A DNA stretch of 39,903 bases from Thermoproteota archaeon (GCA_027491735.1 JAOZGP010000025.1:1-39903), one strand, 5' to 3'; positions 19,065 to 24,176 are shown, counted from the stretch's first letter. Numbers and translations: made by a program. Notes: generated from the sequence alone by a model not told the origin.

Positions 19065-19385
19065 ATGCCCGAGATCGAGTTTAAGGGGCAGAAGTATATA
19101 GTGGATGAGGATGGATTCCTCCAGGAACCTGAAAAGTGGAGCCCGGAGTTGGCTGAGCATATGGCTAAAATCTATGAGGGCATAGATAAGCTGACTGACG
19201 AGCATTGGAAGGTCATAAACTTCCTCAGGGACTACTTTAAGAAGTACGGTATAGCTCCACCGATAAGAATTCTCTGTAAGACTACTGGGTTCAGTCTACA
19301 GAAGATATACGAGCTCTTTCCCTCTGGGCCTGCCAACGGAGCCTGCAAGGTTGCGGGCCTGCCCAAACCGACCGGCTGTGTGTGA
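19065..19385 (+). CDS. dsrC: DsrC sulfur carrier (TusE/DsrC family, true two-Cys type)
   Basis: VDEDGFL...W, LTDEHWKVINFLR, YELFPSGP and the C-terminal C-x10-C arm CKVAGLPKPTGCV. Confidence 0.97.
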   Translation: MPEIEFKGQKYIVDEDGFLQEPEKWSPELAEHMAKIYEGIDKLTDEHWKVINFLRDYFKKYGIAPPIRILCKTTGFSLQKIYELFPSGPANGACKVAGLPKPTGCV

Positions 19386-19445
19386 AAGCTTTATCAAAAT
19401 CTCTTCATTTTTTCCCACTAAAAACTCAAAAACGGGTGACTTGGA

Positions 19446-20084
19446 TTGGCTGAGGAGGGAGGAGTTTTCAAGAAGAATAAAGATAAAGAGAAGGAAGTTG
19501 ATGAGGGCAGGAGAACTTTTCTGAAAACCTTAGCTGTCTCCTCTGTGATATTGGCCTCAGCGGATCTGCTCAGCATCCTGAGAGTCCTCGGACCAGCCAA
19601 GCTCAAGATACCGAAGTGGCCCAAACTGAAGATATGCAACGTAAAAGACCTCAAACCTAAAGTGCCCGTTGAGTTCAACTACCCGTTGACGATAACCCCG
19701 AATCTCCTGATAAAACTTGGCAAAAAAGTCCCAGGTGGTGTTGGACTCGATCAGGACATAGTAGCTTACAGCAGGCTGTGTCAGCATCTGGGGTGCATAG
19801 TGGAATTCCTGCCGGAGGGCAAATGTGACAAATATCCGGACAGGGACATACTCTACTGTCCCTGCCACGCCGGTTACTATGACGCGGACGACAAGGCGAA
19901 GGTCTTAGCGGGACCACCACCTTACCCACTTCCTCAAGTCATACTCGACGTCGACGAAAACGGTGACATATATGCCGTCAAGATGGGGCCGCCTGTGATA
20001 TATGGTGTCACACCGAAGGGGTCCGATGAGGTCTGGCGTGATCTTCTCCTAGCTCCAACGAAGATAGTTAAAGGCACCGGGTGA
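19446..20084 (+). CDS. Rieske [2Fe-2S] protein with a twin-arginine signal/anchor
   Basis: GRRTFLK plus a hydrophobic helix, box 1 CQHLGC, box 2 CPCH and GPPPYPLP. Confidence 0.93.
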   Translation: MAEEGGVFKKNKDKEKEVDEGRRTFLKTLAVSSVILASADLLSILRVLGPAKLKIPKWPKLKICNVKDLKPKVPVEFNYPLTITPNLLIKLGKKVPGGVGLDQDIVAYSRLCQHLGCIVEFLPEGKCDKYPDRDILYCPCHAGYYDADDKAKVLAGPPPYPLPQVILDVDENGDIYAVKMGPPVIYGVTPKGSDEVWRDLLLAPTKIVKGTG

Positions 20085-20089
20085 TCTCT

Positions 20090-21825: not shown

Positions 21826-21830
21826 CGAAG

Positions 21831-22691
21831 GTGGATCCATGGGCTTTCTTCGTCGGAGATGTGCTCTCCTATATAGCGGTCATAGTGTTCGTGATTGGAG
21901 TTTTGGCAAGAGTCGGCAAGTGGCTCTCCGTACCAGTGCCCCTTAAGGTACCGCTCACTCCCGGGCCCACAACCTACCCTGGAGTAGTCATCAGGCTTGC
22001 CAAGGAGGTCTTCCTATTCAGAAGCTTGTTCAAGGGGGAGAAAAAGCTCTGGGTAGGAGCGTGGACCTTCCACATATTTCTGCTGACCACGCTCATAATA
22101 CACGTAATCAACCTGCTTTACCACGATCTGTGGAGCGTGATAGGCTACGGATGGTATGAGTTCGCCGGGTATACGGGGATTATACTCTTCGGGGCCCTGG
22201 TGTTCTTACTCGCTAGGAGGATTACTGCTCAGCACATGAGGTACCTCTCAAAGCTCCCGGATTACTTCATATTGATTCTCCTGATGGCGATAGTTTTCAT
22301 GGGTAACTACATAAGATCCTTCTCGGGAGTCGACGTGAAGCAGGTCTCCGCTTGGCTCTATAGCCTGATAGCCCTTCATCCGATACCGCCCCCCAGCGAT
22401 CCATACTTCCTCACTCATGTTCTCCTGGCTGAGCTACTGATTATGTACATTCCGTTCAGCAAGATAATGCACTTCATAGGGATCTTCGTCAGTCCCACAA
22501 GAAACCAGAGGAATGACGGCAGGATGAGAAGACACAGAAACCCGTGGAACTTCCCTGTAAAGATAATGAGCTGGGATGAGTACTGGGCCAAATTCGGGGA
22601 TCAGCTTAGAGGTATAGAGGGAGAAAATGAGGGAGAAGCTAGAGAAGAACAGAAATCACTCACGGGAGATAAATCCGGGGTAGGAGGTTGA
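21831..22691 (+). CDS. dsrM: DsrM (NarI-type diheme cytochrome b)
   Basis: PVPLKVPLTPGP, EVFLFRSLF, FH-x9-H, TH...IPFSKIMH and SPTRN...RH.NPWN. GTG 21831 follows GGAGG. Confidence 0.93.
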   Translation: MDPWAFFVGDVLSYIAVIVFVIGVLARVGKWLSVPVPLKVPLTPGPTTYPGVVIRLAKEVFLFRSLFKGEKKLWVGAWTFHIFLLTTLIIHVINLLYHDLWSVIGYGWYEFAGYTGIILFGALVFLLARRITAQHMRYLSKLPDYFILILLMAIVFMGNYIRSFSGVDVKQVSAWLYSLIALHPIPPPSDPYFLTHVLLAELLIMYIPFSKIMHFIGIFVSPTRNQRNDGRMRRHRNPWNFPVKIMSWDEYWAKFGDQLRGIEGENEGEAREEQKSLTGDKSGVGG

Positions 22692-22706
22692 GTGGAGGGT
22701 TGATCT

Positions 22707-24176
22707 ATGAGGTTGGACTTCTCAAATCCTGGTAAGAAGTGGAAGCTTTACGCGAGCCTTTTGAGCGATCAGAAGGAGTTAGGGCTTCCGTTTCCAAGAG
22801 AGTGGACGCATGAGAACTTTAAACTTCCTCCAAACTGGCGTGAAATCTTTCTAAAAAACATGGAGAGTGTTTTGAAGAAATATAGGTCGGTCAGACTGTT
22901 CATGGACCTCTGCGTTCACTGCGGTGCATGCGCCGACAAGTGCCCCTTCTTCTTGGCCACAAGAGATCCTCACAACATGCCTGTGGCCAGGCAGGATCTC
23001 TTCAGATCGGTCTACAAGAAGTTCTTCGATGCCTCCGGAAAGCTCCTTGGAACCACTGCTGGAGCGGTGAAGGATCTGGATGAGAAGGTGGTAGACGACT
23101 GGTACACCTACTTCTATCAATGCTCGGAGTGCAGGAGATGCGGGGTATTTTGTCCATACGGTATAGATACAGCAGAGATAACAATTGCTGCCAGGGAGGT
23201 TTTGCTCTCAATAGGACTGAGCACTAAGTCCACCACACAGTCCATAAACAAGTGCGAGTTCATAGGGAACCACTTGGGAATACCTCCAGCAGCGATGGCC
23301 AACTCTTTGGAGTTCATGGAGGAAGAGCTCAGGGAAGAGGGGTGGGATGTCGAGATCCCACTCAACAAGAAGGGGGCGGAGATACTGTTTGTCACGCCAT
23401 CGGCCGACTACTTCGGAGATCCACATTGGTACACGATGAAGGGGTATGTGAAGCTGTTCCATGTGCTGGACCTAGACTACACTCTAAGCACCTACGCCAG
23501 CGAGGGAGGGAACTTCGGGCTTTTCCTGAGCTACGAACACATGAAGAAGATAAACGCCAAGATATATAAGGAGGCAAAGAGGCTGGGCGTCAAGTGGATA
23601 CTAGGAGGGGAGTGCGGCCACATGTACCGGGTTGTTCACAACTTCATGGGGAGCATACACGAGGAGCCACCTGACTTCCTGGAGGAACCCGTCTCTCCTA
23701 TAACAGGGACGAAATTTAAGAACGCCGTCTCAACGAAGATGGTACATATATGTGAGTTCACGGCTGATCTCATAAAACACGGCAAGTTGAAGCTCGACCC
23801 ATCGAAGAATGATCAGTATGTGGTCACATATCACGATTCGTGCAATCCCGCTAGGGCAATGGGCCTCATAGAGGAGCCCAGATACATACTTAGGCATGTG
23901 TGCAACCACTACGTCGAGCTGGATCCGAGCGTCAACAGAGAGAGGACCATCTGCTGCACGGCTGGAGGCGGACTCCTCACAGATGAGTGTCTCGAGCTGA
24001 GGTATCAGGCTATAAAACCGAAAATAGATGCGATAAAGAGATCAGGAGCCAACTTCCTGGCACTCATATGTGCCATAGATAAGGCGGCCTTCCCAACCTA
24101 TATGAGGCATTACAAACTTCCGATAAGAGTGGGAGGAGTCCACGAGCTCGTCGGAAACGCTTTGGTTCCTCCATAA
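22707..24176 (+). CDS. dsrK: DsrK (HdrD-like Fe-S/CCG catalytic subunit)
   Basis: CVHCGACADKC, NMPVAR.DL.RSVY, CSECRRC.VFCPYGIDTAEIT, STYASEGGNFG, GECGH, YHDSCN and GGVHELVGNAL. Confidence 0.96.
   Translation: MRLDFSNPGKKWKLYASLLSDQKELGLPFPREWTHENFKLPPNWREIFLKNMESVLKKYRSVRLFMDLCVHCGACADKCPFFLATRDPHNMPVARQDLFRSVYKKFFDASGKLLGTTAGAVKDLDEKVVDDWYTYFYQCSECRRCGVFCPYGIDTAEITIAAREVLLSIGLSTKSTTQSINKCEFIGNHLGIPPAAMANSLEFMEEELREEGWDVEIPLNKKGAEILFVTPSADYFGDPHWYTMKGYVKLFHVLDLDYTLSTYASEGGNFGLFLSYEHMKKINAKIYKEAKRLGVKWILGGECGHMYRVVHNFMGSIHEEPPDFLEEPVSPITGTKFKNAVSTKMVHICEFTADLIKHGKLKLDPSKNDQYVVTYHDSCNPARAMGLIEEPRYILRHVCNHYVELDPSVNRERTICCTAGGGLLTDECLELRYQAIKPKIDAIKRSGANFLALICAIDKAAFPTYMRHYKLPIRVGGVHELVGNALVPP

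Follow-up and report, generated by a model that had tools for sequence, protein, structure and literature searches.

The stretch of DNA considered here, 39,903 nucleotides long and referred to throughout as the window, corresponds to contig C23 of an archaeal assembly (1.357 Mb in 41 contigs, 87.85% complete) that is assigned to the Thermoproteota and belongs to a lineage from hot springs; its nearest named relative, Candidatus Methanodesulfokora washburnensis, is of the same genus. On its plus strand, between 19065 and 27676, genes for a Rieske protein, a cytochrome b (cytb) and a small membrane protein lie within a dsr gene cluster, in the order dsrC, Rieske, cytb, small subunit, dsrM, dsrK, CGGC-domain protein, ferredoxin (fdx), dsrA and dsrB. 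Judged from the sequences, this is a Rieske/cytb module joined to an HdrED-like DsrMK and conserved across one clade, and the gene arrangement suggests an undescribed membrane electron route in sulfite respiration. A preliminary description of the window had listed the first six genes in this order, all on the plus strand, and open reading frames (ORFs) and family matches confirmed it:

19065..19385, plus strand, dsrC (PF04358, E 3e-37; TIGR03342, 124 bits against a cut-off of 53.5)
19446..20084, plus strand, Rieske [2Fe-2S] protein with a Tat motif and an N-terminal hydrophobic segment (PF00355, E 1.5e-7)
20081..21559, plus strand, cytochrome b of the fused b6 and subunit IV type with extra C-terminal helices (start GTG 20081 or ATG 20090)
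21556..21825, plus strand, small three-helix membrane subunit (start GTG 21556 or ATG 21559; no Pfam family)
21831..22691, plus strand, dsrM, NarI-type dihaem cytochrome b (PF02665, E 2e-14, 54 bits; GTG start at 21831)
22707..24176, plus strand, dsrK, Fe-S/CCG catalytic subunit (NF045796, 590.9 bits against a cut-off of 400; PF02754 CCG, PF13183)

The gaps between these six genes are 60, 5, -1, 5 and 15 nt, matching the values first reported, alternative GTG starts aside. Such starts lie 9 nt upstream of the ATG for cytb and 3 nt upstream for the small subunit gene, and the Rieske-cytb gap becomes a 4-nt overlap if cytb begins at GTG 20081. Intergenic distances from the Rieske gene through dsrK range from -1 to 15 nt in the window and from -26 to 11 nt in six other loci, and in the seven loci measured the small subunit gene is separated from dsrM by 0-5 nt and dsrM from dsrK by -8 to 15 nt. 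Shine-Dalgarno-like GGAGG/GGTGA motifs can be read ahead of each start from cytb through dsrK. A TATA-like TTATATATAA lies ~35 nt upstream of dsrC, and a T6 run as well as the TATA-like TTTATCAAAA can be read in the 60-nt dsrC-Rieske gap, so that separate transcription of dsrC is possible and dsrC may also be transcribed on its own.

Subunits of the Rieske/cytochrome b module and DsrMK

The Rieske protein scores 31.7 bits with PF00355, against a cut-off of 20.3, and an alignment of 14 sequences shows no variation at its cluster ligands C112, H114, C138 and H141. The window protein has the disulfide Cys pair, within CQHLGC and CPCH; an RRTFLK Tat motif together with one hydrophobic segment (residues 26-44) would provide for its export and anchoring. 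In the pair of residues that tunes the potential, Tyr is kept and Ser is absent, and this loss of Ser with Tyr kept points to a lower-potential respiratory type of Rieske protein, the tuning values being those given in parts of PMC12954380. An assignment to the small subunit of arsenite oxidase (AioB), suggested by a TIGR02694 score of 97.7 bits that is barely over the cut-off of 95.65, was rejected, as the next gene is cytb and no molybdenum subunit is present. The gene after the Rieske gene is cytb in the window and in 78/90 related loci. A tblastn search of the source genome with the molybdopterin subunit encoded at a related locus, L045, gave no match; this search did not include the AioA family model.

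The cytb product is 492 aa long and consists of a b6-like N-terminal half, a subunit-IV-like C-terminal half and further hydrophobic segments. It matches PF13631 (Cytochrom_B_N_2; E 4e-35), PF00033 and PF00032 (Cytochrom_B_C; E 5e-11), and its closest PDB matches are cytochrome b6 and b. The best NCBIfam model, SoxC (NF041076), reaches 213.5 bits, far below its cut-off of 740. The Qo motif, PEWY, occupies residues 285-288, with P285 and W287 each conserved in 93/93 sequences and Y288 in 92/93 (one Phe). PEWY with E286 is found in 12/12 dsr-linked cytb, and PDWY in 53/71 stand-alone cytb. Haem ligands H94, H108 and H195 are present in all 100 cytb of an alignment of gathered loci.

The fourth-ligand position, which aligns without gaps to H202 of cytochrome b6 1q90_B, is Lys210 here; at this codon (window 20708-20710) the four-His bL/bH ligand set is thus incomplete, the helix-D ligand of haem bH/bn being Lys. 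Across the loci compared (L011-L014, L043-L122 and L128-L134), position 210 is Lys in 83/100 cytb, comprising 12/12 dsr-linked and 71/71 stand-alone sequences, and His only in 17 other Korarchaeota. Given Lys at this position, haem bH would be either His/Lys-ligated or absent throughout the clade, and since K210 is common to dsr-linked and stand-alone complexes, it is a property of the clade and not tied to the dsr link. Members of the Lys-type clade come mostly from peat, soil and sediment metagenomes. The passages of Kao and Hunte (PMC4122944) on this ligand describe the fourth His as missing only in Pyrobaculum, other such sequences having been removed from that data set. A further residue, His212 (window 20714-20716), occurs in 12/12 dsr-linked cytb and 0/88 others, with Tyr or Phe in the stand-alone sequences. 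One change on the cytb tree can explain H212, and the same is true of the PEWY/PDWY difference; we accordingly dropped H212 as independent evidence of function.

The small subunit is 88 aa long with three hydrophobic segments, and a homologous ORF of ~90 aa lies directly 3' of cytb in 50/90 loci (by BLAST clustering) and in all 11 dsr-linked loci. By these predicted features, the Rieske protein, cytb and the small subunit constitute a genuine quinol-oxidising Rieske/cytb complex. None of the usual third redox subunits or acceptors, such as cytochrome c1/f or a cupredoxin, was found in the window cluster.

DsrM scores 164 bits with NF038037, below the equivalog cut-off of 300. Its four His (H81/H91 and H196/H214) are invariant in 12 sequences, with spacings of 10 and 18 residues, which we take to be the spacing of NarI. 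The genomic setting of dsrMK is that of a dsr cluster, with dsrC upstream and dsrA and dsrB downstream, each over its cut-off, and both C-terminal Cys of DsrC are present, 10 residues apart.

Conservation of the linkage and descent of the module

The full order from dsrC through dsrB is found in 4/4 genomes of the genus, the source included. The other three loci are from a metagenome-assembled genome (MAG) that is 90% identical (L011), from M. washburnensis MDKW, with a cytb that is 51% identical (L012), and from a third Methanodesulfokora MAG (L013); the M. washburnensis genome carrying the block has been public since 2019. A metagenome scan, from which the best 80 of 554 confirmed cytb relatives were kept, so that further dsr-linked contigs are possible, placed dsr genes beside cytb in 4 of those 80. 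Three are the known Methanodesulfokora contigs, and the fourth, L045 (35% G+C), carries Rieske-cytb-small-CGGC-dsrM and a contig-end fragment 70% identical to the DsrK of the window.

DsrK was surveyed in a sample of 401 genomes from the phylum to which G052, the source of L014, belongs. It was over the curated cut-off in 7, and Rieske-cytb-small lies inside the dsr cluster in 7/7. Six of these genomes (37-40% G+C) keep dsrC-Rieske-cytb-small-dsrM-dsrK intact, with dsrN ahead of it, and no dsrAB was found within 10 kb of the block in any of the six; in the four measured (L129 and L131-L133) the small-dsrM spacing is 0 nt. The seventh, G434 (L134; 32% G+C), has the order Rieske-cytb-small-fdx-dsrA-dsrB and, further along, CGGC-hemA-like-dsrM-dsrK. 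Within the stretch examined around dsrK, many contigs being short, Rieske/cytb was near dsrK in 0/20 other DsrK-like genomes of the sample (25-41% identity to the window; ~10 kb each side) and in 0/15 further archaeal genomes with DsrK over the cut-off (45-57% identical). The block thus recurs in 11 other genomes or contigs at 37-91% cytb identity, and because of this recurrence its gene order is beyond chance and is no misassembly, a doubt that the preliminary description had left to a synteny search.

In six Rieske proteins of the G134 type the four cluster ligands remain, whereas both disulfide Cys are gone (CQHARYYGT, CPAH) and an insert of ~18 residues is present; the one tested, from L128, has no Pfam Rieske match at E 0.001. 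The genes for these Rieske proteins without disulfide Cys are:

L128:12176-12862, Rieske protein without disulfide Cys
L129:5006-5707, Rieske protein without disulfide Cys
L130:13425-14126, Rieske protein without disulfide Cys
L131:5973-6674, Rieske protein without disulfide Cys
L132:6106-6807, Rieske protein without disulfide Cys
L133:6035-6727, Rieske protein without disulfide Cys

The same early account had proposed the module as part of a new Dsr membrane complex in place of DsrJOP, and had predicted that dsrJOP would be absent genome-wide. No dsrJ, dsrO or dsrP is present in the window, and none was found in the source genome, at its 87.85% completeness, or in 10 sister genomes. DsrJ (NF038038) has no match in the source genome and none in the 10 sister genomes, the latter search having been run without a positive control. 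ORFs with more than one CxxCH are lacking in the source genome, where 8 of 1411 ORFs have one, and in L128-L134. The best DsrO-like and DsrP-like matches in the source genome reach 104 and 48 bits, against cut-offs of 200 and 350 respectively, and both are NrfC/NrfD subunits of a [NiFe]-hydrogenase operon on contig C3; no DsrP over the cut-off was found in the 10 sister genomes. The CxxCH motif check does find an ORF of 122-134 aa with three CxxCH after dsrK in L155, L156, L157 and L169, and in L155 and L156 NrfC-like and NrfD-like genes come after it.

In a DsrK tree of 45 rows (quick IQ-TREE, SH-aLRT support only), the 11 Rieske/cytb-linked DsrK form a single clade (SH-aLRT 100), which is sister (SH-aLRT 100) to a five-row clade with the DsrJ-like ORF in 4/5 rows. 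The Rieske/cytb module sits upstream of dsrM, and the DsrJOP-type genes sit downstream of dsrK. Because the sister clade has DsrJ/O/P-like genes after dsrK, it is fair to speak of an alternative accessory module to DsrJOP, and to this extent the proposal stood; that the module forms a complex with DsrMK is something that we infer.

We also built a cytb tree of 99 rows rooted on His-type Korarchaeota. The Lys-type cytb form one clade (support 100), and inside it all 71 stand-alone sequences group together (support 98). The remaining basal branches of the Lys-type clade, with poorly resolved forks, are the 12 dsr-linked cytb, for which one origin is possible. A vertical Korarchaeota origin of the module was dropped, the His-type cytb of other Korarchaeota being 30-37% identical and forming the outgroup clade. 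Downstream of their His-type cytb, these other Korarchaeota encode a membrane protein of 240-250 aa that matches no Pfam family.

In the stand-alone loci (L046-L122), the gene two places upstream of cytb encodes a cupredoxin-like protein with a membrane anchor in 26 loci and a protein with an EB_dh haem domain in 20 loci, and these neighbours are plausible outer-face Rieske acceptors. No homologues of either were found in the dsr-linked loci or in the source genome; in the dsr-linked loci, the slot neighbouring the Rieske/cytb module is occupied by DsrM. A VKOR-family protein follows the stand-alone Rieske-cytb-small modules in 7 loci.

This history bears on one account of the linkage, namely that an ancestor acquired a Rieske/cytb cassette between dsrC and dsrM in a single insertion, which has since been carried along without function. 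A single origin on the DsrK tree suffices for it, and the dsr-linked cytb lie together at the base of the Lys-type clade. Nonetheless, the block has outlasted two rearrangements (L045 and G434/L134) and a divergence that leaves cytb 37% identical, and in six genomes it has stayed together although parted from dsrAB. Its start and stop codons still overlap or abut, and all haem, cluster and Qo residues have been kept. We therefore regard a linkage without function as very improbable.

The genes that flank the block are also partly conserved. Upstream of dsrC lie genes for a dsrN-like amidase, a KaiC-like ATPase and a winged-helix/TusA-like fusion, the last being kept upstream in L011-L013, L043, L044 and L052. 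The annotated flanking features are:

16235..17596, plus strand, gene 5' of dsrC (PF07685, E 2e-36; PF01656), with a homologue near dsrC in L012 and L128-L133
18335..18949, minus strand, fusion of a winged-helix (TrmB/HTH_20) and a TusA-like domain, divergent from dsrC (PF01978, E 1e-6; PF01206 TusA, E 6e-5, below the cut-off)
24228..24614, plus strand, CGGC-domain protein (PF08821, E 1e-20), co-occurring in L011-L013, L045 and L134
24670..24885, plus strand, small single-cluster ferredoxin (PF13459, E 3e-14)
25347..26567, plus strand, dsrA (TIGR02064, 546.9 bits against a cut-off of 392.85)
26579..27676, plus strand, dsrB (TIGR02066, 493.9 bits against a cut-off of 341.5)

The TusA-like domain of the fusion bears a Cys-x-x-Pro motif, and the protein may regulate in response to sulfur or carry sulfur for DsrC. 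Between ferredoxin and dsrA (24886-25346) are 461 nt without a long ORF, with several T-runs and TATA-like boxes and no Rfam match; the corresponding gap in L012 is only ~50 nt, and the window as a whole has no Rfam match at the gathering threshold. Elsewhere in the window, a porphobilinogen deaminase gene lies beside one for a radical-SAM/SPASM protein (1499-3533), perhaps tetrapyrrole-related, and genes for a LUD-domain/Fe-S protein and a CCG-domain protein (9921-12081; LutB/LutA-like) lie near an FAD-linked oxidase at 6297-7733. The genes at L045:617-5033 diverge from the Rieske gene of that contig. They encode a molybdopterin oxidoreductase of 913 aa in which no Tat signal is obvious, a four-cluster Fe-S subunit that ends in a CarboxypepD_reg-like tail, and a chaperone resembling NarJ/TorD.

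Candidate electron routes

Based on the conserved, translationally coupled block, the lack of any other acceptor gene and the replacement pattern relative to DsrJOP, we infer that the Rieske protein, cytb, the small subunit, DsrM and DsrK act as one functional or physical unit, a proposal that we hold to be evenly balanced between right and wrong. The five membrane-associated products would link a quinone-type pool to DsrC-trisulfide reduction at DsrK, with Rieske/cytb as the interface to the pool, in the accessory place that DsrJOP takes in the sister lineage and in bacteria. In the route that we favour, the Qo site would oxidise quinol at the outer face, the Rieske cluster would pass one electron to the outer haem of DsrM, and DsrM would carry it across the membrane to DsrK and DsrC, while the b haems would return the second electron towards the pool. 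Such a route would be self-contained and, by analogy, would fit the rule that archaeal Rieske/cytb operons encode their acceptor; we prefer it only slightly over one through the b-haem branch, and both count as sub-variants of the single unit.

The quinone-type pool could be fed by a [NiFe] hydrogenase with an NrfC/NrfD anchor. At C3:14202-19065, genes for the Tat-signal small subunit and the large subunit of a [NiFe] hydrogenase are followed by genes for a Tat-signal NrfC-like Fe-S protein and an NrfD-like membrane protein, an operon that is likely to be an H2:quinone-type entry point. The same stretch also carries ORFs resembling hydrogenase maturation genes. Group 1 hydrogenases are reported to be lacking in the Terrestrial-II clade (PMC12787533).

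Several points weigh against the single-unit proposal and the favoured route. In G434 it is fdx-dsrAB, not dsrM, that directly follows Rieske-cytb-small. One origin on the DsrK tree accounts for all linked loci, so the conservation is that of an inherited linkage and not of repeated independent recruitment. According to parts of PMC12954380, a respiratory Rieske cluster usually lies well above quinone in potential, and with so high a potential the transfer from Rieske to DsrM, DsrK and DsrC may be uphill. A Q cycle ahead of DsrMK would also exceed the driving force known for the menaquinol/DsrC-trisulfide couple. Searches of the source genome, which has four or more quinone-type enzymes, for menaquinone markers detected neither MqnA nor MqnD, and no MenB over the cut-off. 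The absence of an oxidase from the source assembly may be an assembly gap. Cytochrome bd occurs in 9/10 sister genomes, including 2/3 congeners, and COX1 in 6/10; with oxygen reductases in the sister genomes, Rieske/cytb could serve oxygen respiration there. A complex prediction that paired DsrM with the module, run on alignments of 52 rows for cytb, 49 for the small subunit and 12 for DsrM, gave scores of 0.00, 0.50 and 0.00; it had no controls and is used neither for nor against the proposal.

The preliminary description had suggested quinone-based bifurcation, or a flow in reverse. In the bifurcating scheme the Qo site would send a high-potential electron to the exported Rieske centre and on to some oxidant, and a low-potential electron in the b-haem branch would drive DsrM, DsrK and the reduction of DsrC-trisulfide. 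The energetics of this scheme fit, and it would solve the doubtful step from menaquinol to DsrC-trisulfide that is raised in passages of PMC10861901. From what parts of PMC12954380 report, the potentials of Rieske and haem bP are roughly symmetrical around quinol, and in anammox bacteria the b-haem branch is proposed to feed a cytoplasmic reductase, with doubtful Qi sites. The Lys at the bH/bn ligand in all 12 dsr-linked cytb, together with the extra H212, could mean an altered end of the chain on the N side. However, K210 is equally present in 71/71 stand-alone complexes and so is not specific to dsr, and H212, requiring a single change on the tree, may be plain ancestry. The scheme needs a high-potential sink for the Rieske branch and none was found in the source genome, where oxidases, cupredoxin/EB_dh homologues and multihaem c proteins were looked for, and sulfite reduction coupled to an oxidant strong enough for this branch would be physiologically odd. 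We consider bifurcation unlikely. A more far-reaching version appears to us a little less probable still. In it, a Rieske/cytb-DsrMK supercomplex would bifurcate without a working Qi site, with the b-haem branch, bearing K210 and H212, handing low-potential electrons to DsrM and DsrK and the exported Rieske centre discharging to an outer acceptor. Given the basal place of the dsr-linked cytb in the Lys-type clade, the stand-alone "aerobic" complexes found in soil and peat would then derive from a module for sulfite respiration.

Alternatively, Rieske/cytb and DsrMK could be two separate complexes that share a quinone pool and a regulon, with Rieske/cytb passing electrons to an oxygen reductase or another outer acceptor for micro-oxic respiration, for oxygen detoxification or with Dsr working in the sulfur-oxidising direction. 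Cytochrome bd and COX1 do occur in sister genomes, and the dsr-linked gene is the sole bc-type cytochrome b in 9/10 of them; where this is so, any complex III function would fall to it, and it may also serve haem-copper oxidases where these exist. The stand-alone relatives also resemble ordinary respiratory complexes with cupredoxin-like or EB_dh partners, and the T-rich stretch and TATA-like box in the dsrC-Rieske gap permit separate transcription of dsrC. Against this, no haem-copper oxidase, cytochrome bd or multihaem c protein was found in the source genome (87.85% complete), and COX1 was found in 0/3 congeners and thus in 0/4 Methanodesulfokora genomes. Cytochrome bd oxidises quinol itself and requires no Rieske/cytb. 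Furthermore, no acceptor gene lies beside the module in any of the 11 dsr-linked loci, the tight small-dsrM and dsrM-dsrK spacing is typical of subunits made together, and the source genome has a single DsrE-family gene and no DsrEFH set. On this evidence two independent complexes seem unlikely, on a par with bifurcation.

Other redox systems of the source genome contain related parts. Three further NarI/CCG-type systems are located at:

C36:13935-15908, fused NarI-like, Fe-S and 2xCCG protein of 657 aa, HdrE-HdrD-like
C30:15636-18051, second pair of a NarI-like and a DsrK-like protein, whose orthologues are also present at L045 and L134
C3:5589-8871, HdrA-like flavoprotein together with a membrane protein of QmoC-like Fe-S/NarI-like type

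McrA (PF02249) was not found in the source genome, though the genus is named for methanogenesis; the source species may be a sulfite reducer without Mcr, or mcrA may lie in an assembly gap.

Significance and comparison with known systems

As the preliminary description had supposed, no characterised Rieske/cytb-DsrMK operon is described in the searchable literature. Nor is any tie between Rieske/cytb and archaeal dsrMK described there, the primary M. washburnensis papers and their supplements lying outside this scope, so that a passing mention is possible. In the searchable full texts, Rieske and DsrMK are mentioned together only in papers on cable bacteria and Desulfatiglans. A large study of Dsr synteny (PMC10504309) plotted Dsr-type matches only, and the terms "Rieske" and "cytochrome b" are absent from its main text; two Korarchaeota genomics papers do not mention the module. 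Marker surveys that score Dsr genes alone would miss it.

How DsrMK is coupled energetically to the quinone pool, and what DsrJOP contributes, are open questions in sulfate and sulfite respiration. Passages of a 2024 paper (PMC10861901) call the role of DsrJOP an enigma, describe it as unclear whether menaquinol reduction of DsrC-trisulfide is favourable, and float bc1-like quinone cycling or bifurcation for DsrMK with DsrJOP. The clade described here, whose sister clade is of the DsrMKJOP type, has a bc-type module genetically wired into dsrC-dsrMK and offers a natural experiment on these questions. Should the modules prove to be a single complex, this would be a respiratory enzyme of a new type, in which Q-cycle and bifurcation ideas about sulfur respiration could be tested directly, and a clue to the use of Rieske/cytb before oxygen. 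As a member of the genus has been reported in culture (PMC12787533), the question is experimentally approachable.

Precedents exist for Rieske/cytb genes within clusters of terminal reductases. In the haloarchaeal Nar cluster, the relevant parts of PMC3509893 propose that embedded Rieske/cytb genes pass quinol electrons to nitrate reductase, and the window cluster is similar in having Rieske and cytb genes within the cluster of an anaerobic terminal reductase. The two differ in topology, as the haloarchaeal reductase faces outside with a high-potential b cytochrome as the proposed go-between, whereas DsrK is cytoplasmic and electrons would consequently have to cross the membrane through DsrM. 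They also differ in descent, the haloarchaeal Rieske/cytb having been imported from bacteria, according to the same parts of that source, whereas the window complex belongs to an archaeal clade. Methanoperedens (PMC4683180) provides a further precedent of Rieske/cytb genes clustered with a terminal reductase. In anammox bacteria, as described in parts of PMC12954380, in Rieske/cytb complexes with NAD(P) reductase and haem c subunits, a cytoplasm-facing reductase has been proposed to draw on the b-haem branch, the Qi site is doubtful, and bifurcation has been proposed. The anammox Rieske, from the same parts of that paper, is of very high potential, keeps Ser and has a proposed nitrite-linked sink, whereas the window Rieske lacks this Ser and has an HdrED-like DsrMK as its partner.

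In Sulfolobales, the Rieske/cytb-oxidase supercomplexes of the SoxABCD and SoxM types contain an archaeal cytb extended by C-terminal helices, whose gene shares an operon with that of its electron acceptor. The window cytb shares the extra C-terminal helices, and SoxC is its best NCBIfam model. Unlike in the SoxC systems, no oxidase subunits are present in the cluster, and the Qo motif is PEWY, as opposed to the PPWF given for SoxC in the relevant part of PMC4122944.

Compared with DsrMKJOP and DsrMK, the window system has the same core, with a NarI-type dihaem DsrM, a DsrK over its cut-off with two [4Fe-4S] motifs and a CCG domain, and adjoining dsrC, dsrN-like and dsrAB genes. Like DsrMKJOP, it has an accessory module of membrane and outer-face proteins encoded with dsrMK. 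In contrast with DsrMKJOP, this module consists of a Rieske protein, a cytb and a small subunit instead of the trihaem cytochrome c DsrJ, the NrfC-type DsrO and the NrfD-type DsrP.

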